DNA of 64,000 bases from Gammaproteobacteria bacterium (GTDB lineage: Bacteria; Pseudomonadota; Gammaproteobacteria; JABABF01), in assembly GCA_965237805.1 (NCBI GenBank), contig OZ250153.1:864001-928000 (forward strand), written 5' to 3'. The position numbers and the translations under genes are program-made. This document shows, in pieces, positions 13,257 to 64,000 of this stretch (the stretch's first letter is position 1; each line of letters opens with the position of its first letter). Below the pieces are notes generated by a model, which had not been told where the DNA came from, made no database searches, and was given only the letters and a program-made list of their open reading frames with translations.

Positions 13257-14732
13257 TTATCTCATGTCCTCTAATGCCAGTGCTTCATTCACGCCCACTT
13301 TTCCTATTGGATGTGGTGTTGAAAATCGCTTGCCATTCAATACTTCAACCAGCGTTAATATTTGCATTCTTGGGTACTCAGCGCTTATCGTTTCCAGCAT
13401 TCCAGCGGCAGACATTTCTTGCAGAAAATTACGGCGCTTTGTGCTAGATAGTTCACGAACAATCAAGCCAGCCATCTTTGCCTCATCGCGTTCTAAAACT
13501 CCGCGCAAGTCCCTTACTGTATTTATCCCAACATTCTTGCCACCCTTGACCTCTATTGCCATGGAGTCAAGAGATTGATGCTTTGGAGATATTTGGAAAT
13601 AAATGCGCCCATCAATGCCGCCATCTGCCGTTCTCTTTGTCGTAACAAAGCCATTTATCGTTTCAACAATCCAGCGTTGGAATTGATACTTATCTTTATT
13701 CCATAGATCAAGAGCGCCTTCCACGTTGCTTGGCACACCATCCACTGTAAAATCCTCTCCATCTTTAAGACGATAATTTGTTTCTAGACGCTGTGTCACC
13801 ACTCTTCTTATAGCGTGATAGGCAATGTCTATACCTATCCATTTTCTTTCCAGTTCATGAGCTGCCGCAATAGTAGTAGCACAACCGCAGAATGGGTCAA
13901 ATACTACATCTCCTTTTTTAGAGCTGGCTAAGATAATGCGCCGCATTAGTTCAATGGGCTTTTGCGTAGGATAACCCAAGCGTTCTTTTGCTTGGCTATT
14001 TATATAGGGTATTTCCCATACATCCCGCATATTTGACCACCTATAAACTCCTTTTTCATCCTCAAAAAATGTTGTGTTTCCTGCCCCGTAATTTATTGTT
14101 CCTGCTTTACGGCCTGATGCTTTGGTATATGCTTTTTCTTTTTGCAATAAAAAATAAGATTTATTGCTAGCCTTGTAGAATAATATGGCATCGTGTTTTT
14201 TGGCGAAGTGTTTTTTACTGGCGCCGCCTGTTCTGTAAGCCCATATTATCTCATTCGTGAAGTTTCGGTGGCCAAAAATCGCATCCATAAGAGACTTTAT
14301 ATAATGAGATGCTGTTTGGTCGCAGTGCAAATAAATTGAACCCGTAGGGCGCAGAATCCTTTTCATTGCAACCAGCCTTTCCGTCATGTATAACAGGTAA
14401 GCAAGTAATCTGGGCTGTGTGTGGCGTAACGCTTGCATCCAAAGTTTCCATAGTTGTTGCGCTGCGTCCTCTATGCCGGCATTAGCAAGCAACACGGGCA
14501 TGTTCCTAATCACACTCATTCGCTCTGGTGTAAGAGTCCATATATCGCAAAATGCTTCCACTTGGTCTGGCAATTCGCGTCCAGTAGCATCTTTGTAAAT
14601 CAAGTTATATGCCTTATTAGAGTTAAAAGGCGGGTCTAGATAAATCAAATCCACGCTTTGCGATCGCATATCTTGCATGATAGACAGGCAATCACCATAG
14701 AACAATTTGTTTTTATGGCTTTTATTTTTCAT
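13257..14732 (-). CDS. Beta-class N6A/N4C DNA methyltransferase fused to a C-terminal Mrr-like PD-(D/E)XK endonuclease
   Basis: IYLDPPFNS precedes YPTQKP and VFDPFCGCATT; C-terminal DGGIDGR...IEVKGG. Confidence 0.88.
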   Translation of the reverse strand: MKNKSHKNKLFYGDCLSIMQDMRSQSVDLIYLDPPFNSNKAYNLIYKDATGRELPDQVEAFCDIWTLTPERMSVIRNMPVLLANAGIEDAAQQLWKLWMQALRHTQPRLLAYLLYMTERLVAMKRILRPTGSIYLHCDQTASHYIKSLMDAIFGHRNFTNEIIWAYRTGGASKKHFAKKHDAILFYKASNKSYFLLQKEKAYTKASGRKAGTINYGAGNTTFFEDEKGVYRWSNMRDVWEIPYINSQAKERLGYPTQKPIELMRRIILASSKKGDVVFDPFCGCATTIAAAHELERKWIGIDIAYHAIRRVVTQRLETNYRLKDGEDFTVDGVPSNVEGALDLWNKDKYQFQRWIVETINGFVTTKRTADGGIDGRIYFQISPKHQSLDSMAIEVKGGKNVGINTVRDLRGVLERDEAKMAGLIVRELSSTKRRNFLQEMSAAGMLETISAEYPRMQILTLVEVLNGKRFSTPHPIGKVGVNEALALEDMR

Positions 14733-15335
14733 CACGCCGCCACCAAAGATTGAATGAACTCATCAAATAGATTTCCATGTTTTCTGTTGTTGTATTTGTA
14801 GCAGGATTCGGCAATATATAGATTTGAAAAAGTCTTGCTATAGTGGTGGTGAGCGCCATACCAAGCCCGTCTTATAAGGGACCCAAAACCCTCAATGGTG
14901 TTGGGATGAACTATGCCATCAACATACGCCATGGCATGCCTAATCGTTGCATGCCGCAGGCTCTTGTGCATTGAGCGATAGCCTTTATACTCGTCGATTA
15001 CTAGTAATGATGCGTCTTTATCCACATGCTTTGATACAAAGGCAGTCAGGATGTTGGCATTCACTTTTTTAGATGGCCTAGCAATGACTTTCCCTCCACG
15101 CTGAACAACGCCAATAACTGGCAACTTGCTAGTGCCTCTGCCGTGAGGGGAAGGCTTGTCAGAATCGCGTTTGCCGCTCTTCCGAGGTCTGCCGCCTACA
15201 TAGGTTTCATCCATCTCAACTACACCTTGCAGCAGTTCGCATGATGGTGCTTCTATCATCGCGGCGCGCAGATTCAAGGTGTTCCAAGCAAGCATCATGG
15301 TCAGGAAACTTTTGAAAGATACTAAAGAGATTCAT
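14732..15335 (-). pseudogene. IS1595-family DDE transposase with an internal frameshifting deletion
   Basis: True N-terminus MNLFSIFQKFPDHDACLEHLESAR (ATG 15335) is out of frame with the core VEMDETYVGG..DEYKGY..HPNTIEGF; zinc ribbon/HTH region absent. Confidence 0.88.
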
Positions 15336-21307: not shown

Positions 21308-22594
21308 ATGAACAATGAGGCACTCCATCTGTGGCCGGGGCCAGCAATGCCCGAGGACAAAATGTGGCGACAACATGATCTCCTTGACCGGGGGGTTTTT
21401 GTCGATGTCCTCTGCCAGCTCATCAGCTTGTACCAATCCGGCCCGGGTTTTGTGGTCTCCTTGAATGGTCATCGGGGCACTGGCAAGAGCTTCCTCGCCA
21501 AGATGCTCTGCGAACAGCTGACGGAGCTCGGCATCTTGTCCGTCTATGTCGATACCTGCACCACTGGCTATGCCACCGACCCTCTCGCCACAATTACCAG
21601 CAAAATCATCCGATCCGACAGCTTGGACGCCGAGAAACGACGTGCGTTCCAAGCGGCCTTTCTCCGGATCAGGCCGCAGTACACCAGCGGGCAGCCCACA
21701 CCGGCTCCGCCGCCGATCGCCATGGCCGATCAGCTGATATCCACTGCGGAGGGTGCCCCCTCCTCCGGAGAATTCCGGGAGGCTTTGGCCGCTTTGGCGA
21801 TGGGTGATGGCACCGCACAGCCCATGCCCTTGGTGATCGTGGTGGACGAACTCGATCATTGCCCAACCAGCTACACGATGGAGATGCTGAGGGTGATCCA
21901 AAATTTCTTCCGTGTCCCAAATGTGTTCCTGCTGTTGCCAATCCATAAAAAGCAACTGGAACAGAGCGTCATCGATTGCTATGGGGAGATTGATTCGGCT
22001 GGCTATCTGCAAAAATTTATCAAATACAGCATCAAGGTGCCGACGCGGGACAACCCGAAGCACGGCTTGACCGATACCGAGCAATACATCGATCACCTCA
22101 ATCGCGACGCGGGCAACCTGCTGTCCTCCAATACCTGTGACTTCCTGACCAAGCTCGCCCTCATGCATCGGTGCTCTTTGCGGCAATTGGAGTTGATCGT
22201 CGTGCGCATCTCCATCCGCCTCGCCCTCCATCAGGGAAGCGCTTCCTTAATCAACTGGCTACTGGCCTATTTGGCCTGCGCTGAAATCGTGGATCCCCAA
22301 CACTTCAACAGACTGCAAACCGGCACCGAGACAACCGACGGGGTGGACGAGTTCTTGGGGTCACCTAAAACCCAACGGCTCGTGCGCGATGAAGAGCTGT
22401 GCGAGTTGAGGAACCTCATGTGTTATCTGCTGGACACTGATGCGGATATCAAACGCCGGGAAGGCCCCGGTGTCGGTGCCGAATTGATCCGAATCGGGGA
22501 AAACTTCATCGTGAATCCCTCCGCTCGGGAACACCGCAAGCAAATCATCCCCAGCCATGCCCAAGTCATGGCGAAATTCGATATCCGCTTATAA
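21308..22594 (+). CDS. KAP family P-loop NTPase (copy 1)
   Basis: Walker A NGHRGTGKSF; Walker B LVIVVDELDHC; YLQKFI. Confidence 0.9.
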   Translation: MNNEALHLWPGPAMPEDKMWRQHDLLDRGVFVDVLCQLISLYQSGPGFVVSLNGHRGTGKSFLAKMLCEQLTELGILSVYVDTCTTGYATDPLATITSKIIRSDSLDAEKRRAFQAAFLRIRPQYTSGQPTPAPPPIAMADQLISTAEGAPSSGEFREALAALAMGDGTAQPMPLVIVVDELDHCPTSYTMEMLRVIQNFFRVPNVFLLLPIHKKQLEQSVIDCYGEIDSAGYLQKFIKYSIKVPTRDNPKHGLTDTEQYIDHLNRDAGNLLSSNTCDFLTKLALMHRCSLRQLELIVVRISIRLALHQGSASLINWLLAYLACAEIVDPQHFNRLQTGTETTDGVDEFLGSPKTQRLVRDEELCELRNLMCYLLDTDADIKRREGPGVGAELIRIGENFIVNPSAREHRKQIIPSHAQVMAKFDIRL

Positions 22595-22603
22595 ACCCGC
22601 CCT

Positions 22604-22880
22604 CAGATAGCTGCGCCCCAAACCCGATAGTGGCTGGATCAGCCCATCGGCCATGTGGAGGGCAAGCTCCGACTCACCGAAGCCCAGCTACGCGGAAGCT
22701 GTTCTTAGCAAAGATGCTGCCGTCTGGGAAGACGCAGGACGGCACGGTGATGTCGCGCTCCTCGGCCAACAGACTATGCAGTGCATTAGGTGGCCACTAC
22801 TGCACATCGTATGGTGTAGGATGGGTTGGGGACATGATCCCATAATGTGGGGAGTGTGCTGTGGCTCTTGGGCTGCGGCA
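22604..22880 (-). pseudogene. Degenerate duplicate of glycosyltransferase gene segments and its 5' region
   Basis: 22604-22809 aligns with 19456-19663; 22812-22880 resembles ~20861-20950 (GGACATGAT.CCATAATG). Confidence 0.85.
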
Positions 22881-22920
22881 CGGTAGAGTACGAACACATG
22901 CAGATTAAGGGAGCAGCGAG

Positions 22921-24276
22921 ATGACTGACGAAGGTGTGCAGATTATGCCGGGGGAGAAGGAAGAGGGGCCAACATGGTGCGAGGCCGACAAACTCGAACG
23001 GGAAGTTATGGCCAATGAACTGTGCGGGCTAATCGACAAAATCGATAGTAAAGCTGGCGCTGTCATTGCCGTGGACGGCGATTGGGGCACGGGCAAAACA
23101 TTTATCATGAAGATGTTGCAAGAAAAACTAAGTGCCAATAAGGTCGCAAATATCTATCTTGATGCCTATGAGACAGATTACATGGAGGATCCATTAATCA
23201 CTATTTCGAGCCAAATAATAGCGGCACAAAATCCAGATGCTGGGCAGGAGAATCCATTCAAATCGTCATTTTTAAAACTTATATGGGCTAGAATCATGAA
23301 AACAGGGCTGCGGGTGGCTGGCTTAGGGGTTTTAGAGGGCGTGGTCGACGATTATCAACAAGCACCTGAAGAATCCGCATTAGAGCAAGATATAAAAAAT
23401 AGTGTCGGCAGAATCGAGTTCGTCGCCGAATTCAAAAATCAGCTATCTGAAGTTGCACCAAGCATGACAAAGGTTGCAGATGACATTAAAGAAAACAAGT
23501 TGGTCATCATAGTAGACGAGCTAGATCGATGCAAGCCAAACTACACATTGAAGATGTTGGAAGTGATGAAGCATATTTTTACTGCAGAAAATATTATTTT
23601 CATTTTGTCTGTCAATAAAAAAATGTTGGAAAAAACAATAGAAAATACTTACGGAGAGGTCAATGCTCATCAATATCTTCAGAAATTTATAAGCTACAGC
23701 ATAGGGATATTGGCACCCAATAAAACGATGTCGGAGGGGCATGTCAGGGGTTTAGCTGCAGAAAGCCAACTTATTTTAAATCGGGACTCACTCGAATTGT
23801 TGACACACTTATTATCTCAAGGTGGTTGCTACTTACGAGATGTGCAGAAGATAATCGGCAACCTTGCTGTGTATAAAATGAAATATAATGAATATTTTGC
23901 ACAGCTGCAAGTATATGAAACATACATGGCATGCGCATATGTTATCAATCCAGCGCATTTCAACGCTCTGAGAACGGGCATGTCCACGATATCTCCAATA
24001 GAGAAGTTCTTGCAAATAGAAGTGGAGGGGTTATTACAAAATGCAACGATGTCGGCCCAAGGCAGTATCAGCGGTGCTATCTTAGCGCTTCGGGATCATA
24101 TGGTCTATCTAACTGTCTCAGATGAAAACATAAACAAGGAAGCAGGAGGAAATAATGCAGCCGATATCATACACGTGGGCGATAACATATTCCTAAACCA
24201 TGAGTACTCGATAAGGCGGGAGGACTGGATTCCTTTCTTTGCCGACAGGATCGCCGCATTAGCTCCCCAGCGCTAG
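22921..24276 (+). CDS. KAP family P-loop NTPase (copy 2)
   Basis: DGDWGTGKTF; VIIVDELDRCKP; YLQKFI; C-terminus alignable with copy 1. Confidence 0.92.
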   Translation: MTDEGVQIMPGEKEEGPTWCEADKLEREVMANELCGLIDKIDSKAGAVIAVDGDWGTGKTFIMKMLQEKLSANKVANIYLDAYETDYMEDPLITISSQIIAAQNPDAGQENPFKSSFLKLIWARIMKTGLRVAGLGVLEGVVDDYQQAPEESALEQDIKNSVGRIEFVAEFKNQLSEVAPSMTKVADDIKENKLVIIVDELDRCKPNYTLKMLEVMKHIFTAENIIFILSVNKKMLEKTIENTYGEVNAHQYLQKFISYSIGILAPNKTMSEGHVRGLAAESQLILNRDSLELLTHLLSQGGCYLRDVQKIIGNLAVYKMKYNEYFAQLQVYETYMACAYVINPAHFNALRTGMSTISPIEKFLQIEVEGLLQNATMSAQGSISGAILALRDHMVYLTVSDENINKEAGGNNAADIIHVGDNIFLNHEYSIRREDWIPFFADRIAALAPQR

Positions 24277-40633: not shown

Positions 40634-41734
40634 ATGAGCGAAATCAAGCGGGCCAAGGCCATCACCGAGGACGGTGCCAAGCTGTTCATTCAGGATGTGA
40701 CGTTGCGCGACGGCATGCATGCCATCCGCCATATGTATGGCATCGAGCATGTGCAGAAGATCGCACGGGCACTCGACGCGGCGCGGGTGGATGCGCTGGA
40801 AGTGGCGCACGGCGACGGCTTGGCTGGCTCCAGCTTCAACTACGGCTTCGGCGCACACACCGACAAAGAGTGGATCGCGGCGGTGGCCGATGTGCTGGAG
40901 CACGCACGGCTGACGACGCTGATCCTGCCCGGTATCGCCGTCAAGGGAGACTTGAAATGGGCGTGGGACTTGGGGGTGCGTTCGGTGCGCGTGGCGACGC
41001 ACTGCACCGAGGCCGATGTCTCGCGCCAGCACATCGAATACGCCCGCGAGCTGGGCATGGACACTGTCGGCTTTCTGATGATGTCGCATATGAGCGGGCC
41101 CGAGGCGCTGGCCGAACAAGCCGCTCTGATGGAGAGCTACGGGGCGCAGTGCGTCTATGTCGTAGACAGCGGCGGGGCGCTGAACATGGACGACACCGAG
41201 GCGCGCTTCCGCGCTTTCGACGCCGCGCTCAAGCCCGAGACCGAACGCGGCATCCACGCGCACCACAACTTGGCCTTGGGCGTGGCCAATTCAGTGGTGG
41301 CGGTGCAAAACGGTGCCAACCGGGTGGACGCCTCGCTGGCCGGCATGGGTGCCGGTGCTGGCAATGCGCCACTGGAGGTATTCATCGCAGCAGTGGAGCG
41401 CATGGGCTGGAACCACGGCTGCGAATTGTATCCACTGATGGATGCCGCCGACGACTTGGTGCGACCACTGCAAGATCGCCCGGTGCGGGTGGACCGCGAG
41501 ACGCTGTCCTTGGGCTACGCCGGGGTCTATTCCAGCTTCCTGCGTCACGCCGAGCGGGCGGCGGAGCGCTACGAGTTGGAGACGCGGGACATCCTCGTCG
41601 AGCTGGGACGCCGCCGTATGGTCGGCGGACAGGAAGACATGATCGTCGATGTGGCGCTGGACATGGTGAAAGCGCGGGAAGGTGCTGGCGAGGCGGCGGC
41701 GGACAGCGAGGGCCAGCGCAAGGCGGCGGGGTGA
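40634..41734 (+). CDS. mhpE: 4-hydroxy-2-oxovalerate aldolase, MhpE/DmpG/HsaF family
   Basis: [40 protein letters not shown]. Confidence 0.95.
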
Positions 41735-43284
41735 TGGCTAAAGACAAAAATCGCAAAACCATACCGGCTATTCGCATTGAACAATGGATGCAGGAGTGGG
41801 AGGAAATACCTGACTCACAGGAGATGGAGAGGCATTTCTATGCTTTCAGCATGAATGTTTTAGATCTGAAGCGATTAAGCGCTGTACATCAACGTAGCAC
41901 TCAAGGGAGAGAGAGTGCTAGTCAGGATGACAATATACAACGAAGGCTAGATATAGGGAGATCTAAAAAGATTGCTCAGTATGTGCGCTATGGGTACCCG
42001 ATGGACACTGTCACAAAAACCGCACAGGAAAAGGAAGATATAAGCCTGCGTAATCCCGGATGGTTGCCTGCCATTATAGTAAATATCGTCAAGAGTGAAG
42101 ATACAAGAATATTGAGAAAGGATGCAGTAAAAATCGAAGATAATGGGAATTCAAGATTTGAGATCAAACTACCAAACGGATTTAACAAGAATTGGGAGCC
42201 TACAGCACTACACCCAATCGAAGTCATTGATGGGCAACACAGGCTTGCTGCATTCGAAGAAACCACTGAGGAGGGCAAATATGAAAAATATGAGTTGCCA
42301 GTTATCGCATTCCACGGCCTTAGCCGCGCAAAGCAAGCCTATCTGTTTTACACAATTAACATACGCCCCAAAAAAATAAATACAAGTTTGGCTTATGATT
42401 TATACCCATTGTTGAGGCAAGCAACATGGCTGGAAAGCGGCCCAGATGCCCACAAGGTGCAGGCATACAGGGAGATCAGGGCACGCGAGATTATCGACCT
42501 GCTGTGGGGGCACCCCAAGAGCCCGTGGCAGCATCGTATAAATATGCTTGGAGAATCCTTGGGGCAGGAGGCTGGAACCCAAGTATCACAAGCAGCTTGG
42601 GTGCGGTCACTATATAGTACTTTCATGAAAAAATCCACAAGTAAAATTGGTGGTTTATACTATGCTAAAAACCTTAATTCCGACAACGAAAACAACGATC
42701 CATGGGCTTGGCCTATTAGTCAGCAAGTAGCTCTTTTGATAACAATGGGGAATATGCTACGGCACCATCTGAATAATAGTGAGTCCTTCAATAGCAAATT
42801 TTGTCTTCTAAACCAAGATGTTGGCATGCGAGGTTTGTTAAATTTATGGAATGACATGCTTTTTACTTGGGCAAGTGAATCTTCCAACAATGCCAAACAA
42901 TTGCACGACGCTTTCAAGTTGCCACCCCCAACAGGACAGCAAGAGGAGCCCTCAGAGGCACACAATGAATTGCACAAAAAAATAGATATGTGTCTTCAAA
43001 AAAGCATGGTCAGGGATCCGACAGATGAAAATTCAGCACTAGATTTCATGGACAACTTGTCTAAACATCTTTCCAGTTATAATTGGAACACTTTCAAGCA
43101 TGAAGCAGTGCAGCAATTACCTGCAGATTCTATCACCCGGATCCAAAAACAAGCCTTGCGAGGATCCGCCGGATACAAAATCATACGAGAAGGGCTGATC
43201 AAGCATATACAGGATCAGGGCAGCAATACGGAAATTTCAAATATAGCAAGCATTATATCGGAAAAACATGGAATCCAACCCTAA
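41734..43284 (+). CDS. DGQHR-domain (DndB/ParB-like) protein
   Basis: IQRR, PGWLP.IIVNI, IEVIDGQHRL, QAYLFYTIN..PKKIN.SLAYDL; ATG overlaps the mhpE stop (TGATG); AT-rich. Confidence 0.9.
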   Translation: MAKDKNRKTIPAIRIEQWMQEWEEIPDSQEMERHFYAFSMNVLDLKRLSAVHQRSTQGRESASQDDNIQRRLDIGRSKKIAQYVRYGYPMDTVTKTAQEKEDISLRNPGWLPAIIVNIVKSEDTRILRKDAVKIEDNGNSRFEIKLPNGFNKNWEPTALHPIEVIDGQHRLAAFEETTEEGKYEKYELPVIAFHGLSRAKQAYLFYTINIRPKKINTSLAYDLYPLLRQATWLESGPDAHKVQAYREIRAREIIDLLWGHPKSPWQHRINMLGESLGQEAGTQVSQAAWVRSLYSTFMKKSTSKIGGLYYAKNLNSDNENNDPWAWPISQQVALLITMGNMLRHHLNNSESFNSKFCLLNQDVGMRGLLNLWNDMLFTWASESSNNAKQLHDAFKLPPPTGQQEEPSEAHNELHKKIDMCLQKSMVRDPTDENSALDFMDNLSKHLSSYNWNTFKHEAVQQLPADSITRIQKQALRGSAGYKIIREGLIKHIQDQGSNTEISNIASIISEKHGIQP

Positions 43285-43292
43285 AATCTATT

Positions 43293-44570
43293 ATGAGTTC
43301 CCAGGGGCAGCGCAGAAACACGGAAGAAATGATGGGAGTATTTGACCGTGCATCCACTGCCAGTGTCGCAGGGGCTGCCGCGGAAATTCAGATTGAAGAT
43401 TTCAATTTTTCCACCCTAAACCCAAGTAATAGTTCACCTAAAAATACACATTTTTTGGCTAGCGCGATAGCGCATGGGCTAGATGGGTGGGAATATTTGG
43501 GTATGGCACTTATGAGCCACCTCCATGGCAGGCATATAATAGCCTTCCATCTGGCTTATTACGCACAGTTGAGAGCAGCTAAATCCCTATTATGCTGCAA
43601 CGGAATCTATCTAGAAGGCAGCATTGCATATGTTCTGAAAGAAAGCCAGTATAAGGGTGAGAGAGAACAATTGTCAGGGGCAAAAGGGCCGCATGAAATA
43701 ATATGGGAAATGCACAATAAAATGCCTGCAGAAAGTTGGATTGACAATGTATTCGGCTTCAATATACTGGAATTTATTAAGGACGTAACAGATGGCATGG
43801 TCGGCGATGAAGCAGTTTCCAAAGTTATTCAAAAACTAAAACAGCAACTCGGCAGAGAATCTGCATTCAGCGATAAAACAAAGTTCTACAGAAATCATGT
43901 GAGTTATCAAGCTCAATCTATTATTAAGGGTGAAAATACGGCAGAATCAATCGACGATAAATATGAATTTGCAAAGACATTTTGGGCCACAATGTCTCCA
44001 GACATAGCAATAAAATTAATCTTGATTTCTGAAATTTTACGAAGCCTAAAAAGATATGTGTCCAGATCACATTTAGCACGCTATAAGCTGAAAATTGAAT
44101 CCGCACTGCAAGATCATGGAATTGATCAGGGAGGGATAGAATGGATAACAAGAGGACCAGATAGTGAAGATGGTAAAAGTATTCAATTTTGGGCTCTGCA
44201 AGAGGATATATTAATGGGAGAGGATTTTTCCAAAGTGGCACCGCATTATGTGCAATGCGCTATAAGCAGAGGCGCCTTATTGCTCCAGATCGCATCGGAT
44301 GCCTGCAAGGACAGGATCGGAGACTCTCAGAATGCTAAATCAGTAGTACACGAAGTGGCAGAATTGTTTGGTGAGAAAAGGGCTCTGTGGGAAGACTCAG
44401 GAGAGATCGAAAGGTATGCTGATTTATACATTCCTATAACAAGTTATTTCGATGATGGGGATGGGGGAGATGATGCGAGAAAATGGACGTCTATACAAAA
44501 AATAGCGGCACTGGGATGTGAAAGAATTGCGCTCTGGCTACTCATGCCAGATGATGGGCCTGAATCGTGA
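43293..44570 (+). CDS. Putative HEPN-fold protein
   Basis: HLAYYAQLRAAKSLL..NG, conserved-looking His (GPHE), and YRNHVSY (R-x4-Y) match the HEPN pattern. Confidence 0.6.
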   Translation: MSSQGQRRNTEEMMGVFDRASTASVAGAAAEIQIEDFNFSTLNPSNSSPKNTHFLASAIAHGLDGWEYLGMALMSHLHGRHIIAFHLAYYAQLRAAKSLLCCNGIYLEGSIAYVLKESQYKGEREQLSGAKGPHEIIWEMHNKMPAESWIDNVFGFNILEFIKDVTDGMVGDEAVSKVIQKLKQQLGRESAFSDKTKFYRNHVSYQAQSIIKGENTAESIDDKYEFAKTFWATMSPDIAIKLILISEILRSLKRYVSRSHLARYKLKIESALQDHGIDQGGIEWITRGPDSEDGKSIQFWALQEDILMGEDFSKVAPHYVQCAISRGALLLQIASDACKDRIGDSQNAKSVVHEVAELFGEKRALWEDSGEIERYADLYIPITSYFDDGDGGDDARKWTSIQKIAALGCERIALWLLMPDDGPES

Positions 44571-45697
44571 CTATAAAATATATGGGCTCAAAACAAAATA
44601 TGCTTGCAAATGGTCTTGGAAAATTATTAAAGAAAGAATGCGAAGGGAGAAAAAGATTCGTTGACCTATTTTGTGGATCTGGATCTGTATCCCATTACAT
44701 GGCAGAGCACAGTTCTCTGCCTGTTGTAGCGGTTGATCTACAGAAGTATTCCACTATGCTTTCTAATGCCATAATAAATCGAACCGACACTGTCGAGCCA
44801 AGTATATTTGACCAATGGCTGAGTCGTATTAATTCCAAAAGGATCAAGCGAAAATTCCGGAACATGGAATATAAGGAAAATCACTGTTTCAAGGAGTACG
44901 CAGAACAAGCACGAATGTCTTGTGCGCAATCACGCGGCTATATAACCAAAGCATATGGGGGTCATTATTTTAGCCCACAACAAGCATTGACTTTAGATGT
45001 GGCATTGGAAACCGCTCCTCAACGTCAGCCCGATTACACGATGGGTATCGCAGCTCTCATTGTGGCTGCAAGTAAGTGTGCTGCCGCCCCTGGCCATACG
45101 GCACAGCCATTGAATCCATATAAAAAAGCATCTAAATTTGTTCGGCGAGCATGGGAGAATGATATTCTTATTATTTTAAAAAATACTCTAATAAATTTCT
45201 CCCAAAGAAAAGCACAAAAAAGAGGGGGTGCTTTGGTGTCAAATGCAAATGATTTTGCCAAGGAAGTAAGGCGTGGCGACCTAGTGTTTATTGATCCTCC
45301 ATATTCCGAAGTGCAATATAGCAGATTCTATCATGTGTTAGAAACAATTGCTCAAGGACGTTGCAGTAAAGTTTCTGGCGTTGGGCGCTATCCTCCTCAG
45401 CTAGAGAGGCCTAGATCAGAATATAGTCTCCGCTCGCAATCAAGTAAAGCTTTAGAATCTATATTAGATATTTTATCTTCCAAAGGTTGTAAAGTGGTGA
45501 TGACGTTTCCAAGAAAAGAGTGTAGCAATGGGTTATCAGGTGACCAGGTGATTTCCTTGTCTGAAAAATACTTTAGGAATGTAGCAACGACAACACCGGA
45601 TCATGCGGAATTAAGCACTTTAGGTGGTTTTAAGGATACAAAACGTGGAGCCCGCCAAGTATCAACAGAAATGATCCTGACCTTATCAACACATTGA
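44567..45697 (+). CDS. D12-class (alpha) N6-adenine DNA methyltransferase, M.NlaIII/M.FokI-like
   Basis: KYMGSK, FVDLFCGSGSVS, FIDPPY..VQYSRFYHVLETI; GTGA overlap with the upstream gene. Confidence 0.92.
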   Translation: MTIKYMGSKQNMLANGLGKLLKKECEGRKRFVDLFCGSGSVSHYMAEHSSLPVVAVDLQKYSTMLSNAIINRTDTVEPSIFDQWLSRINSKRIKRKFRNMEYKENHCFKEYAEQARMSCAQSRGYITKAYGGHYFSPQQALTLDVALETAPQRQPDYTMGIAALIVAASKCAAAPGHTAQPLNPYKKASKFVRRAWENDILIILKNTLINFSQRKAQKRGGALVSNANDFAKEVRRGDLVFIDPPYSEVQYSRFYHVLETIAQGRCSKVSGVGRYPPQLERPRSEYSLRSQSSKALESILDILSSKGCKVVMTFPRKECSNGLSGDQVISLSEKYFRNVATTTPDHAELSTLGGFKDTKRGARQVSTEMILTLSTH

Positions 45698-56372: not shown

Positions 56373-56480
56373 TTGGACGTGGCAACTGCCCCGGTCTAGC
56401 CAAGAAAATGAATCCCGATGTCAGCAAGCCGCTCAGCAGCGTCGCGCCAAGCTGTCGGGTCACGCTTGATCAAAGAGGAA

Positions 56481-57467
56481 ATGACTATGTTCAGTATTGA
56501 ATTCCTAGAGCAATTGCCAAGGGATCCGTTGACGAGAATCAACCAGCTATGCGAAAAATTGGCACCGGATGTGGTGCAGGCGAAGCGGCTCTGGCTAGCT
56601 CGCAACGCTGTACTGTTGGTCTTGACCAGTCTGTCAGCGTTCCTTGTCATCCGGATTGGCATTGCGTTTAGCGGCAGCATCTATTCGCTTTTTACCGAAG
56701 CGCGTGGCATCGGGGCCTTGCTGGCCTTGACCGCGTTCTGCATCCCGTTTTTTTTCGTGATCAGAGAATTCAAAGGCCACTTGGAAAGGATTTACAAAGA
56801 CATCATCTTGGATCTGGATACCATCCGGCTGTACGTGAAAAATTGCTCTGAGACAGTGGATTTGTTTCTGGTAAAAACAAATCTGTTTGTCATGGTGGAT
56901 TCTGATCTGGATCTAAAACACCGCCAATCTGCCAAGAACAAGCTGATGTACGACATCAGCACGGATATGCGCACGGTCTGCGCCGCCATCAACGAAATTG
57001 ACTACAATCGCATACGGCGTAAAAACCAAGAGGAAATCCAAGCGCGACTGGATGCTGAAGAGCCCTATGAATATATGCCCCAAGCACCGTATGAGCTGAC
57101 GGATGCTGAATTGCAACGGGTGCAGGATCTGATACAGGAATTGAAGACGTCGATCCGCAATAGTGGGGAATTGACTGAAAGTCATAAGGATCGCTTGCTG
57201 AGCCGCTTGGATGCACTGCAGCAACGAGTCAATAAAAAGATGTCTTCTTTAGACAAAGTGTTTGCCCTGATCGGGACGGCGGGAATCACCCTCGGCAAGT
57301 TGGGACCGGAGGTGAAACCACTGGTCGATTCCTTCAGGGAGCTGGCGGATGTGTTCAGAGCTGTCGGCGCACGTGGCGATAGCGGGCGTGATGCCAACAC
57401 ACTGCTCACAGGGCCAGACTCGGATCCTGTGCCACTGATGCCGCAGGATGAACCCGCCAAGATCTGA
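56481..57467 (+). CDS. Hypothetical two-TM protein with a C-terminal helical bundle
   Basis: Lower GC, AGAGGA RBS, two hydrophobic helices, coiled-coil C-terminus. Confidence 0.7.
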   Translation: MTMFSIEFLEQLPRDPLTRINQLCEKLAPDVVQAKRLWLARNAVLLVLTSLSAFLVIRIGIAFSGSIYSLFTEARGIGALLALTAFCIPFFFVIREFKGHLERIYKDIILDLDTIRLYVKNCSETVDLFLVKTNLFVMVDSDLDLKHRQSAKNKLMYDISTDMRTVCAAINEIDYNRIRRKNQEEIQARLDAEEPYEYMPQAPYELTDAELQRVQDLIQELKTSIRNSGELTESHKDRLLSRLDALQQRVNKKMSSLDKVFALIGTAGITLGKLGPEVKPLVDSFRELADVFRAVGARGDSGRDANTLLTGPDSDPVPLMPQDEPAKI

Positions 57468-60868: not shown

Positions 60869-61022
60869 GGGGGACTCGGCACTGCACGCGGTGGCAGGGC
60901 GGGCTGCCGTGCGGTAGCCTTGGATGCTGCTGGGGGATTATACGAGAGGCAGCTGCGGGGGCAAGGTATTGCGCATAGCGGCAAAAGTGCACAGATTGGC
61001 AGACATCGCCTGCCCCGCCGCT

Positions 61023-62810
61023 TTATAGCGCCCTTGCGCGTGCCTCCTCGTACAAAACAAAATCCTGATGGTAGATCTTTTGAATCCTTGCCCGGACTTG
61101 CGGGTCGTTTTCCACATAATCTCGCAGCGTGGAATATTGGAGCTGTGTGACTGTCAGTGGGGCTGGTTTGAACCCCATAAAGATGTTGTGTATTACCCCA
61201 ACCAGTCGACGTGGATGTGTCAAAAAATAATATATCCGACGCATCGTTCGAAGACCAAGGTGGAAGAAATCGAGCAAGGCTAGGTTGCTAGCACTTGTTG
61301 AGTGGATTCTGAACAGAGAATCATGTCTAAACTCAGCATTAAATCCAAGGATTTTGTTTAGTTTGTCAATGCCGGATTCAATACTTTCCTGTAAAAGCAC
61401 ATAGTCAATGTCACTGAGTGTCAATCCCTTACTTGACAAAAACTCATGCTGTGGGAATATATGCACATTATAAAATCGTCCTTCTATATAATCCAAAAAT
61501 AGGTTGAAACTATTTTTGACATCAACGCTTAAAACTTCATGCCACTTGGTTTGTATGGTTTCAGCAGAGCAGATGTCATATCTGTGCGTCTTGGCAAGGT
61601 GGAAGAAACCAGACACTGCCCTGTGAAATGGGTCGCGGATCACCACGATTGTACGGTGCCCATATGGCTCCACCTCTGAAAAACAAAACTCGTCCGCTAT
61701 GGTATATCCCCACATCTCAGCAAGGCTCGTCGACATATTTTTAGGGATATGGATCAATCCAAATGGTTGATTTGAGACGGTGTTGTCAAACATGCGGATT
61801 TCTTGCAAATCCACCTCCCTCCCGCCGAAGTTCTCTTTGAAATCAATCACCGGTGCTAGGGGGTTATTGCCGCTGAGTGCTTGTTTCAAATCCTTGGCCT
61901 GCGATAGCACATCGATGAGCTTGTGGCCGATGTGGCGAAAGCGTTGGATTTGCACAAGATGCCGGGATTGATCGCTCAGGCCATCGCCTAGTGGTGGGAC
62001 CTCCTGCTCAATGTAATAGTCGAGCTCGCGACGTAGAAATCCGGCACCTTCGTGATCAAAAATTCCTCGTATGCTATATTCCTCTAACCAATGGCGCACC
62101 CGGGCTGTGGAAACAGCATGTCCTAAAAGTTTCAGGCACCCACTAATGCGCTCCGCCACCTCTTTGTTTATGATGTGCTGACTGCGTTTTTGATCGTCGA
62201 CACGATGCTCTAAGTAAATGGTGGAGTGGTTGTATTGCTGGATCACAGGTTGATCTTCACGCAACATAAAACGGCGGTTTTTGTCGTTCGAAAATTTGAT
62301 ATCACCCTGCTCTGAGCTTGGCCCAACTGTTTTAAACTGTATCTCTCCAATAGGAAACCATACGATATAGTCACGGTAATACTTAATCGTTTGGATGGTG
62401 TGCCAGCTGTAGTTCCGCCAGTGGCGTTTGCTCGCTTTGTCCTCGGTGTAGTAGCGGCGGAAAAACCGACATAAGTGCCCATATATCTCGCGCTCCGCAG
62501 TGTGGGTATCCGCGCCCGCAAGCTCATGCTGTACCTGCAATGCCTGAGTCTTAGGTGATATCCCTGGATCCATCCTTGTGGGTTCAAGGCGCACAACTTC
62601 CGGATCGGGTGCTCGTTGCGCCTCGGCCTTGTCGTTGGAGTGGCATTCAGCAAGCACCCTGCGTATCTGTGGCGGCAGGCCATGTTCCAAAAATGCGTCC
62701 AGCTCTTCGCGGTGCGCGTTCATGTGCCGACAAATGCTAATGTCTACATCAACCTGACCCAGCTTAAACAGCGTTACGAGCTTGCCCTTTAGTGCGTAAA
62801 TCTTCTGCAT
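61023..62810 (-). CDS. Fusion of a type III R-M Mod-like N-terminal region and a Sulfotransfer_2-type sulfotransferase
   Basis: N-part LF.L...D.DI.I.R.MN, IY.HL..FFRRYY, GFLRRELDYYI, IGHKLID.L.Q; C-part IHIPKNMSTS, IRDPFHRAVSGF, H..PQ..FL, IY.QDF.LY. Confidence 0.75.
   Translation of the reverse strand: MQKIYALKGKLVTLFKLGQVDVDISICRHMNAHREELDAFLEHGLPPQIRRVLAECHSNDKAEAQRAPDPEVVRLEPTRMDPGISPKTQALQVQHELAGADTHTAEREIYGHLCRFFRRYYTEDKASKRHWRNYSWHTIQTIKYYRDYIVWFPIGEIQFKTVGPSSEQGDIKFSNDKNRRFMLREDQPVIQQYNHSTIYLEHRVDDQKRSQHIINKEVAERISGCLKLLGHAVSTARVRHWLEEYSIRGIFDHEGAGFLRRELDYYIEQEVPPLGDGLSDQSRHLVQIQRFRHIGHKLIDVLSQAKDLKQALSGNNPLAPVIDFKENFGGREVDLQEIRMFDNTVSNQPFGLIHIPKNMSTSLAEMWGYTIADEFCFSEVEPYGHRTIVVIRDPFHRAVSGFFHLAKTHRYDICSAETIQTKWHEVLSVDVKNSFNLFLDYIEGRFYNVHIFPQHEFLSSKGLTLSDIDYVLLQESIESGIDKLNKILGFNAEFRHDSLFRIHSTSASNLALLDFFHLGLRTMRRIYYFLTHPRRLVGVIHNIFMGFKPAPLTVTQLQYSTLRDYVENDPQVRARIQKIYHQDFVLYEEARARAL
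61026..61120. repeat. 95-bp direct repeat (second copy 62883-62977)
   Basis: 8 mismatches in 95 nt by manual alignment; 3' ends of the two paralogs. Confidence 0.93.
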
Positions 62811-62882
62811 AGCCAAGTTTTTTTCATCTTAATGGCATCGCTGTTTATTAGCTTGGAAGCCAGCCGCATCACAGCCGCTTTC

Positions 62883-64000
62883 TAGCGCCCTTGTGAGTGC
62901 CTCCTCGTACAAAACAAAATCCTGATGGTGGGGCTTTTGAATCCTTGCCCTGACTTGCGGGTCGTTTCCAACATAATAACACAGCATAGATTAAAGCTGT
63001 GGAGGTGGTTTTGTGGTGATTGGCATAGGGGCCAGAAAACCCATGAAAAACTCGTCGACTAGCCGGGGAAATTCAACTAGATTTATATATAAACGGTGTC
63101 CGTATAGCGCCGCCTCCGAAAAATCAAATGTTTGCTCTAAGCTCAATTGCCACATAGCCTCTAGGCTGGAGGAGGCATTCTTGGGGATGCTAATGTATAC
63201 GAAAGTCTCGGTGCCGAAGCTATCGATCAGGGAGCATGGCTCCGTCGCGCAATCCTCCTTAAAATAAGTGGTCGACACAAGGCTTTGCTTTAGCCTGAGA
63301 TCTTGTTTTAAATTCTTGGCCTCCGCCAAAAAATCGAAGAATCTGTAAGCGATCCGGCGGAGAGCTATGGTGATCCGAGTAAATCGCTCTGGATTGATTG
63401 GGGTTGCCTTAATGTAGGCGTCAAGCTCGCTGCGCAGAAAGCCAGCAACATGGTGATCAAAGGCGGATCGGTTGAGATAATATAATAAATTTCCATACAG
63501 AAGTTTGGCTGGCAAATAGCGCCTCCACTTGGCCAGTTTGGCATCGTCCAAGCTGACGATGATGGCTTCGTGATATTCCTGCAGATGACATTCAAATTGT
63601 CTTTTTGATCGTCGACGATACGATTCTCGAAATGCAGCTCCAAGCGGATTCCATCTGGGGTGACTGGCTTGTCTGCACGCAACAGCGGGCGCAGCTTGGC
63701 ACCTTCAGCCAATTCGACATCGCCCTGCCCCGCAGCAGTCTTGAAAGCCAAATAATAGCCGCGCGGATTAACCTTGACGAGTACCGAGCCACTTTGATAT
63801 CGTACCGGCTGTAGTGACCCCAGTGGTGTTTTTCCGCCCCTTCCTCACCGTAGTAGCGGCGGAAAAATCGACATGGGTGCTGGTAGACTGCGTGCGCTAC
63901 AGCTGTGGCGTCGCCACTGGCCAGCTCAGACTGCGCCCCCAATGCCCATGGCTCGGCAGACTGTTGCGGAGCTCCCCCGGCGAATTCTCCCCGCAGCTCG
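62883..64000 (-). pseudogene. Decayed tandem paralog of the Mod-N/sulfotransferase fusion (runs off the window)
   Basis: VYQHPCRFFRRYY, GFLRSELDAYI, ISIPKNASSS spread over three frames; premature TAA at 62991; internal deletion. Confidence 0.85.

Follow-up and report, generated by a model that had tools for sequence, protein, structure and literature searches.

The fusion gene and its assembly

In the window (the whole stretch of 64,000 nucleotides that was analysed), an intact open reading frame is found at 61023..62816 on the minus strand. It encodes a fusion protein of 597 residues, with a TTG start codon at 62816 and the stop codon at 61023-61025. The alternative start, an ATG at 62810, gives a protein of 595 residues, which is entry P0002 in the protein database; the initial annotation had described one ORF of 595 codons from this ATG, and the single open frame was confirmed.

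The protein is built of three parts, all encoded on the minus strand: a module derived from the Mod subunits of type III systems (residues ~13-314, 61875..62780; defined by BLASTP, PADLOC, phmmer and alignment), a linker (residues ~315-345, 61782..61874; from the alignment), and a PAPS-dependent domain of the Sulfotransfer_2 type (residues ~346-597, 61026..61781; Pfam PF03567). The linker follows the final long helix of the Mod module, precedes the first strand of the sulfotransferase (ST) domain, and is the junction of the chimera. This junction is crossed by independent contigs from two runs of one sample, and a single contig of each run covers 61043-62926 and 61043-62864, respectively, with zero differences. 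An artificial joining of unrelated sequences, envisaged in the initial annotation, is contradicted by these contigs; within the available data the fusion is genuine and not an assembly chimera. The search of NCBIfam with the fusion gave 0 families, and the promoter and terminator scan gave counts no higher than in shuffled sequences. No match in the PDB was found by sequence for the N-terminal half, for the ST half or for the fusion itself.

The Mod-derived N-terminal module

Homology between the N-terminal half and the corresponding region of large type III-associated Mods had been proposed from motifs, and BLASTP, PADLOC and phmmer agree on it. Residues 13-314 of the fusion align with residues 12-354 of a 1027-residue adenine DNA methyltransferase (BLASTP, E-value 5e-39, 31% identity), the PADLOC profile MTase_III (PDLC03646) matches residues 3-135 at 1.4e-14, with the match ending at profile position 134 of 1057, and phmmer found 533 matches of the N-terminal half at E≤0.001 among 1.84 billion representatives. 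Three of the four motifs quoted earlier for this half are exact, namely HLCRFFRRYY (residues 114-123), GFLRRELDYYI (259-269) and IGHKLIDVLSQ (296-306). The fourth, LFxL..D.D..IxRxMN, gives no regular-expression match as written; the corresponding segment read from the translation, LFKLGQVDVDISICRHMN, has one residue more before the first D than this notation.

The methylase motifs are absent, as had been observed: neither [DNS]PP[YFWH] nor FxGxG is matched by regular expression in the fusion protein, and N6_N4_Mtase (PF01555) shows no match in it even at E≤10, while all five homologues (5/5) have PF01555. The conserved segments that had looked shortened proved to be true deletions. In the alignment with Mods, the module has a 22-residue gap after RRYY, and the FIHKDL segment of the Mods is missing. 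Among the 134 Mod-conserved columns, the fusion keeps 50, has changed 54 and has deleted 30. The Mod residue is kept in all three copies at 25 of the 134 columns (counted from the column listing), and these 25 are concentrated in the RRYY, HW.NY and GFLRRE motifs.

The front module of a Mod was modelled confidently (pLDDT 85.7), and in the N module predicted for the fusion the helices and strands are ordered as in this model. One segment conserved in Mods and deleted from the fusion, GDF...YAIPYEGEEVK, was considered as a PD-(D/E)XK nuclease motif; this assignment was unsupported and was dropped. In the confident Mod model the segment is a low-confidence loop (pLDDT 48-65, residues ~130-160), and neither the fold searches nor Pfam gave a nuclease. 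Foldseek against PDB and BFVD returned nothing at E≤0.001 for the models of either the fusion or the Mod module. The best VIA-align result for the Mod module (Z 6.9) covers 69 residues of a helical hairpin and is within the noise range, and no solved structural relative of the front module was found with the two tools. The prediction of an N-module homodimer (score 0.00, mark 0.42) gives no evidence either way.

The sulfotransferase domain

The presence of a Sulfotransfer_2 domain with both PAPS motifs, the second main claim of the initial annotation, was borne out. The Pfam profile PF03567 matches residues 387-590 of the fusion with 40.4 bits (cut-off 22, E-value 4.8e-10), and the copies of the sister species score 26.1 and 35.6 bits. 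The sister copy P0156 covers profile positions 8-250 of 252. The conserved C-terminal tail (...YH.DF.LYEEARARAL) was considered as a secretion signal and rejected, because it lies inside the Pfam match, which extends to profile position 250 of 252.

Two motifs of the PAPS-binding site were located by motif search: the PAPS-binding loop (PSB) IPKNMSTS (residues 357-364, with Lys359; 61725..61748, minus strand) and the 3'-phosphate-binding motif RDPFHRAVS (residues 394-402; 61611..61637, minus strand), which fits the PxxRxxS of PF03567. According to PMC11625862, the PSB lysine is a hallmark of Sulfotransfer_2 and PxxRxxS is the PF03567 consensus for 3'-phosphate binding. In the three aligned ST sequences Lys359, R394, P396, R399 and S402 are invariant, as is a C-terminal motif of the domain; in the intact copy of the sister species, N replaces P before the PSB lysine. 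The alignment also places a conserved segment, HIFPQ, at residues 452-456 (61449..61463, minus strand), where the same three sequences agree at H452, P455 and Q456. His452 is the candidate catalytic base.

Relatives of the ST domain outside the genus were not found by indexed sequence searches. The ST profile, run over 401 genomes of the class, gave two distant stand-alone sulfotransferase-like stretches, both without the Mod module. In the AF2 model of the fusion, pLDDT is below 50 over residues 308-386, the PSB region included. The best VIA-align result for the fusion (Z 5.7) is within the stated noise range of the tool. The match to heparan sulfate 6-O-sulfotransferase (5t03_A) is weak (Z 5.3, rmsd 6.0, 134 residues aligned, 18% identity), and it stands amid helical noise of equal Z. 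The orphan ST sequence, this weak fold match and the low pLDDT of the PSB region speak against an active enzyme.

The tandem pseudogene and the neighbouring genes

An adjacent paralog of the same architecture had been reported, and it does exist, at 62883..64000 on the minus strand (ORF and alignment), continuing to ~64155 beyond the end of the window. It is, however, a decayed pseudogene and not a second working gene: its pieces lie in three frames, with in-frame stops, and ST residues ~406-526, the PB motif included, are deleted. The stretch 62900-64000 of the pseudogene is reproduced gap-free by contigs of both runs. A direct repeat of 144 nt (no strand assigned), with copies 83% identical, is present at 60993..61136, where it comprises the 3' end of the intact gene and ~30 nt downstream (1468-1611 of L001), and at 62850..62993, at the 3' end of the pseudogene (3325-3468 of L001).

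The neighbours of the fusion gene encode heme O synthase, SCO1, an acyl-CoA synthetase, SnoaL and an enoyl-CoA hydratase. These genes give no clue to the substrate of the sulfotransferase, and no glycan-synthesis genes are found beside the fusion gene. The fusion gene is inside a low-GC islet; the other low-GC islets of the window hold defence or mobile genes.

Distribution and evolution of the fusion

The search for the architecture in other genomes, suggested in the initial annotation, found it in a sister species, so the fusion is not unique to one genome. It was found in only one genus (2 of 61 relatives). The scan of the genome collection found only the two loci of the sister species, and two metagenome scans gave 0 relatives. 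The combination of Mod module and sulfotransferase was not found outside the genus among 1.84 billion protein representatives, nor did literature searches reveal it.

Both species carry the fusion at the same chromosomal site, where it is 37% identical between them while the flanking genes are 73-85% identical; the gene changes several times faster than its neighbours. Both also keep a 597-codon open frame at this syntenic site, despite replacement of ~63% of the residues in a stretch of ~47% GC. The two halves diverge at like rates (32-43% for the N half and 36-47% for the ST half), which indicates that neither is free of constraint. The second copy of the sister species is interrupted by a stop, and in total two of the four larger copies are broken; a third, tiny remnant is present in G000.

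In the tree built with FastTree, the fusion copies form one clade with an SH-like support of 100 and very long branches. The architecture and the same deletions are common to every copy in the two species, and the copies belong to this clade; the fusion thus predates the duplications, in agreement with what had been deduced from the adjacent paralog. In two other genera of the family, the sequence upstream of the heme O synthase gene shows no synteny and is therefore uninformative for dating the insertion.

Relation to parent Mod systems and supply of PAPS

The fusion can be compared with the large (~1000-residue) type III Mods (PDLC03646; e.g. the 1027-residue P0003), whose N-terminal ~310 residues are homologous to it. 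The core motifs RRYY, HW.NY and GFLRRELD.YI are common to both, together with the order of secondary-structure elements. The differences are that the fusion has the sulfotransferase at the position of the N6_N4_Mtase methylase and is without the 22-residue conserved loop and FIHKDL. The parent Mods were found in clusters with SNF2 and type III Res at all five plasmid loci inspected (5/5), whereas the fusion has neither neighbour. The front module of the parent Mods (~350 residues) is present in hundreds of protein clusters, and no Pfam family was found for it; the Atlas search with the N part of a homologue gave only unannotated methylase-fragment clusters. PDB matches of the large Mod span only residues 454-805, with the methylase part (residues 490-803) matching 4zcf_A at 2.3e-49. 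The EcoP15I-type Mod (PDB 4zcf) is related to the fusion only through this methylase part of the parents, and its matching region excludes parent residues 1-354, the part kept in the fusion. With the Sulfotransfer_2 family (chondroitin/heparan sulfate sulfotransferases and bacterial relatives), the fusion shares an above-cut-off Pfam score, the PSB lysine and PxxRxxS; it differs in being bacterial, predicted to be cytoplasmic, fused to a Mod module and without glycan-synthesis neighbours.

A sulfotransferase directed to a restriction-modification (R-M) complex, one of the roles proposed initially, was not supported. The res gene sought beyond the 64 kb was not found within 15 kb past the window, nor in the 6 kb that flank the fusion gene in the opposite direction. 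Across the genome (1.73 Mb, 97.4% complete), no REase_III helicase was detected with a single 1112-residue REase_III query, no DrmD-like SNF2 with a single query, and no full-length Mod of the parent family with the queries used. The genome contains an APS kinase (7.8e-66) and an ATP sulfurylase (2.3e-75), and is thus able to make PAPS.

Discussion

On balance, the sequence data lean towards a functional, lineage-specific chimera, in which a stand-alone sulfotransferase carries an exapted Mod module. This reading is preferred because both halves are identified, the PAPS residues are invariant, the genome supplies PAPS, and two 597-residue frames are open at the syntenic site at 37% identity. 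Stand-alone action is suggested by the absence of a full Mod, a REase_III helicase and a DrmD-like SNF2 from the genome searched, and of an adjacent res. We infer both the catalytic activity and the role of the N module from sequence, and the fusion is most likely an active sulfotransferase.

In the proposed mechanism, an SNF2-associated type III Mod would have contributed its entire non-catalytic N-terminal module, joined via the ~30-residue linker to a divergent Sulfotransfer_2 domain, with loss of the methyltransferase and target-recognition part of the Mod. The protein would act alone, outside any R-M complex. The sulfate donor would be PAPS, made by the endogenous ATP sulfurylase and APS kinase, and it would be bound by Lys359 of the PAPS loop and by the Arg and Ser residues of PxxRxxS, with His452 probably acting as the base. 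Targeting or assembly may be provided by the exapted Mod module, which would bring the enzyme to the binding partner of the module; "targeting" is a guess, because neither a Pfam family nor a solved relative was found for the module of the parent proteins.

The breakage of two of the four larger copies and the very long branches would also fit relaxed selection, and the gene could be a decaying relic: a sulfotransferase gene would have inserted into a degenerating mod gene, the chimera would be drifting towards loss, and the frames that are still open would have survived without a selected function. The tiny third remnant in G000, the 37% identity at the syntenic site, the 54 changed and 30 deleted Mod-conserved columns, and the lack of partners and of relatives found beyond one genus are compatible with such an origin. 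We nevertheless consider it unlikely, since two frames of exactly 597 codons have stayed open through ~63% residue replacement at ~47% GC. None of the three aligned ST sequences departs from the others at the PAPS-loop lysine, the key residues of PxxRxxS or the C-terminal ST motif, and the Mod core motifs are retained in all three copies. Moreover, decay at these loci takes the form of frameshifts and a ~120-residue deletion, and the intact copies are without either.

Another reading concerns the substrate. The Mod module might keep a contact with DNA or other nucleic acid and take the sulfotransferase to DNA, RNA or a nucleotide, which we regard as a rather slim possibility; the same low probability applies to a sulfated nucleic-acid mark that would, for instance, label self or be directed against invading DNA. 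Such a role would be in line with the origin of the N module in a DNA-modifying subunit, where the ST domain substitutes exactly the methyltransferase part, and with the fast birth-and-death evolution and the low-GC islet, which resemble those of defence genes (the other islets of the window being defence or mobile). PAPS is available in the cytoplasm, and no obvious signal peptide is seen at the N terminus of the fusion when the translation is read by eye.

On the other hand, DNA recognition in type III Mods, as established for EcoP15I, resides in the methyltransferase/TRD part, and it is this part that the fusion has lost. Pfam, PDB and fold searches give no sign of DNA binding by the N module, no cognate nuclease or reader was found nearby or genome-wide, and literature searches gave no DNA sulfotransferase. 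The characterised members of Sulfotransfer_2 act mainly on glycans, according to PMC11625862. We consider it improbable that the module derived from Mod has retained recognition of DNA, or of a DNA-bound state, and that the enzyme sulfates a nucleic acid (on a base, a sugar hydroxyl or a terminus), and DNA sulfation by the fusion is speculative. If a nucleic acid were nonetheless the target, the reaction would be one not described among DNA or RNA modifications, and it would have evolved when a sulfotransferase took the place of a restriction system's methylase.

Finally, an ST-like domain that no longer transfers sulfate and acts as a PAPS/PAP-binding sensor or a purely structural element, leaving the effector or oligomerisation role to the Mod module, would suit the very divergent, orphan sequence, the weak fold support and a catalytic base that is not assignable from the family profile (PMC11625862). 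We give this little credence, since every residue that defines PAPS binding and transition-state stabilisation is retained, the PSB lysine included.

For the stand-alone chimera that we favour, both halves belong to known superfamilies, and it is their combination that was found in no other genus. The fusion suggests that SNF2-associated type III Mods have a front module (~350 residues) that can be separated from them and used by another enzyme, and it offers a handle on this module, as the binding partner of the module should be the target of the sulfotransferase. Even in the ordinary case, it would be a clear example of domain exaptation from a defence system. The gene itself has the traits of a conflict or accessory gene, with its location in a low-GC islet, confinement to one genus, very fast evolution, and repeated duplication and loss.

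The fusion gene and its Mod-derived half

The fusion gene is real and chimeric. It lies on the minus strand of the window (61023-62816) as a single open frame of 597 codons from a TTG, or 595 from an ATG two codons on. Logan contigs from two runs of a single sample, which may be the one that the assembly came from, cover positions 61043-62926 and 61043-62864 without differences and thus span the junction between the two halves, which within these data speaks against the assembly chimera considered in the initial annotation; the contigs also reproduce the adjoining pseudogene gap-free over 62900-64000. The sole family above the Pfam cut-off in the fusion is Sulfotransfer_2 (40.4 bits, cut-off 22, E 4.8e-10, aa 387-590). 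Pfam gave no family for the first 340 residues and NCBIfam none for the fusion. Regular-expression searches recovered both PAPS motifs that had been annotated (IPKNMSTS, aa 357-364; RDPFHRAVS, aa 394-402) and confirmed the lack of DPPY-like and FxGxG methylase motifs. Three of the four motifs listed for the N-terminal half were matched exactly, and the first was unmatched as notated, the translation reading one residue off.

The proposed homology of the N-terminal half to type III Mod proteins holds. In an indexed search with the fusion (5572 candidates), six proteins were returned at E≤0.001, namely the fusion itself and five DNA methyltransferases of 941-1045 aa; aligned by BLASTP with one of these five, P0003 (1027 aa), aa 13-314 of the fusion are 31% identical to residues 12-354 (5e-39). 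The N6_N4_Mtase domain starts as late as residues 471-502 in all five homologues, so the part common to the fusion and the Mods is the non-catalytic front. The PADLOC model MTase_III (PDLC03646) matches homologues end to end (1e-235, 4e-215), and its match to the fusion is confined to aa 3-135 (1.4e-14). Exhaustive phmmer with the N-terminal half over 1.84 billion cluster representatives matched 533 proteins at E≤0.001, of which 239 reach ≤1e-10. Pfam was run on 47 of the shorter proteins among the matches listed: 33 carry N6_N4_Mtase, 11 (fragments) no family, and one each Reg_prop repeats, a weak DUF6575 and Sulfotransfer_2, the last being P0008, a protein of 597 aa.

The fusion took over the entire Mod module as far as the last long helix, and the core motifs are retained. 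Among 134 columns conserved in at least 80% of 75 full-length Mods (first 480 residues), the window's fusion protein keeps 50, lacks 30 and has changed 54; by our own count, all three fusion copies retain 25 of these columns, grouped in a few motifs. In the alignment, two deletions are common to all copies: 22 residues after RRYY, with loss of the conserved GDF...YAIPYEGEE segment, and FIHKDL ahead of GFLRRELD. The exapted module has probably kept some of the function that it has in the Mods.

The front module in the parent Mods

In all five plasmid loci inspected, the large Mod stands beside a DEAD/DEAH helicase of ~1100 aa and an SNF2-related protein, identified by PADLOC at one such locus as a type III restriction enzyme (PDLC03654, E 0) and a DrmD-like SNF2 (1.3e-201). 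The methylase part of the large Mod (residues 490-803) matches EcoP15I Mod (4zcf_A, 2.3e-49). For the front module, the PDB gave no match by sequence, and Pfam no family common to its members. The AlphaFold2 model of a 450-residue front fragment (87 aligned sequences) is confident, with mean pLDDT 85.7 and pTM 0.72, and consists of long helices, a five-strand sheet and a closing long helix; the conserved loop missing from the fusion is a low-confidence part of it. The fold search suggested in the initial annotation found nothing in Foldseek at E≤0.001 against the PDB or viral models, and the best VIA-align result (Z 6.9, 69 residues of a helical hairpin) is within that tool's stated noise range. 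With no PDB relative by sequence, no Pfam family and no clear relative by fold, the front module is therefore a widespread domain without assigned function. As a module of ~350 residues it is found in the SNF2-associated type III Mods P0003, P0037 and about 530 other proteins, none in the window. The segment conserved best in it (GDF...YAIPYEGEEVKLHWAN) appears in the model as a loop of low confidence and may serve to bind a partner.

Copies, distribution and divergence

A paralog of the same architecture had been reported next to the fusion. The copy exists upstream, at window 62883-64000 and on to ~64155 (locus L005 1-1360), as a pseudogene broken up over three frames, with in-frame stops; sulfotransferase residues ~406-526 (~120), including the 3'-phosphate-binding motif, are deleted. 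A PAPS-loop-like ISIPKNASSS is still legible in it. The 3' ends of both genes share a 144-nt repeat of 83% identity.

Among 61 related genomes, the architecture occurs in that of the window and in one congeneric species, and is absent from the other 59. The sister species has an intact 597-aa copy at the syntenic site (enoyl-CoA hydratase, SnoaL, fusion, UbiA, SCO1). In its second copy (L007 1498-3285, contig C181), flanked by dicarboxylate symporter and MAPEG genes, a single in-frame TAG separates a 267-aa Mod-module frame from a 326-aa sulfotransferase frame; this copy may be a pseudogene, or else a version made as two proteins. In the window's genome, a 33-residue stretch at 574788-574895 (L033 ~1510-1608) resembles the family's conserved C-terminal tail (48% identity to the sister copy) and probably represents what is left of a third copy. 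A 186-aa frame at 812070-812399 (L013) matches Sulfotransfer_2 below threshold (19.9 bits, cut-off 22) and lacks the PAPS loop; BLAST showed no closeness to the fusion family.

Two metagenome scans gave nothing related, the species-representative genome collection added just the sister loci, and two indexed searches with the sulfotransferase half returned the sister's sulfotransferase frame alone. A sulfotransferase profile over 401 genomes of the class found, besides the tiny third remnant, just two distant matches that stand alone and lack the Mod module. Literature searches, at the level of titles and abstract openings, brought up neither a fusion of this kind nor a DNA sulfotransferase associated with restriction systems.

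Identity between the syntenic copies is 37%, whereas the flanking proteins are 83.6, 85.3, 84.2 and 72.9% identical; both halves diverge alike (N-terminal 32-43%, sulfotransferase 36-47%). In a FastTree of N modules the three fusion copies form one clade (SH-like support 100, stem 0.69+0.41), with tips of 0.75-0.79 compared with a median Mod tip of 0.47.

Probable sulfotransferase activity and alternatives

As hallmarks of PF03567, excerpts from a polysaccharide sulfotransferase review (PMC11625862) give a conserved lysine within the PAPS-binding loop together with the 3'-phosphate-binding motif PxxRxxS. The fusion has both, and the hallmark residues are invariant across the sulfotransferase sequences aligned. 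The AlphaFold2 model of the fusion (mean pLDDT 65.9) is weaker than that of the Mod front; its N part has the same order of elements, and for its C part the fold comparison listed a single sulfotransferase, HS 6-O-sulfotransferase 5t03_A (Z 5.3, rmsd 6.0, 134 aligned, 18% identity), among unrelated structures of equal Z. The genome encodes a PAPS reductase, and also APS kinase (7.8e-66) and ATP sulfurylase (2.3e-75), so PAPS is available in the cell. Because the hallmarks are invariant and PAPS is at hand, the fusion would most likely be an active sulfotransferase, a reading to which we give somewhat better than an even chance.

We think it improbable that the fusion is a drifting relic: its frame is kept open in two species despite very fast change, and the other copies are in ordinary decay. 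Sulfation of nucleic acids by the fusion is less probable again; the ancestry of the Mod module and a locus that behaves like a defence gene speak for it, but the positive support ends there. A role directed at a restriction-modification complex, also proposed initially, is not supported, because no partner was found in the genome (single contig, 1.73 Mb, 97.4% complete; the window is its 864001-928000): one type III Res query and one DrmD-like SNF2 query gave no match, the Mod family model matches just the fusion and its pseudogene, with no full-length Mod, and no res gene lies in the 15 kb past the window end or in the 6 kb on the other side of the fusion. Less probable still than nucleic-acid sulfation, with the hallmark residues invariant, is a non-catalytic PAPS-binding domain in place of the active sulfotransferase that we favour.

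Genomic surroundings

The fusion is followed downstream by the genes of a UbiA-family heme O synthase and of SCO1. On its upstream side, past the second copy and beyond the window, come those of an acyl-CoA synthetase, a SnoaL-like protein and an enoyl-CoA hydratase. The fusion lies in a low-GC islet (N-terminal half 0.51, sulfotransferase half 0.435, window 0.60), with GC3 of 0.57 and 0.47 compared with 0.78 in the neighbouring gene. Defence or mobile genes occupy the other low-GC islets of the window. At 13257-15298, a 492-aa N6_N4 DNA methylase is fused to an Mrr-type restriction nuclease domain, with an IS1595-family transposase adjoining. Side by side at 21308-24276 are two P-loop NTPases of the KAP family, one of 428 aa and, in a low-GC islet, a second of 451 aa. 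An islet at 40870-45697 (GC 0.43-0.45) combines an 804-aa protein with a DndB-like domain, a 425-aa frame to which Pfam assigns no family, and an adenine methylase of the D12 class (Dam-type), possibly together a module for defence or modification. A 349-aa frame without Pfam family is found in a lower-GC stretch (0.57) at 56418-57467. Past the window end (L005 4622-6026), two adjacent frames carry repeated D.D.NGYLD-type segments, which on reading of the translation look like EF-hand calcium-binding loops.
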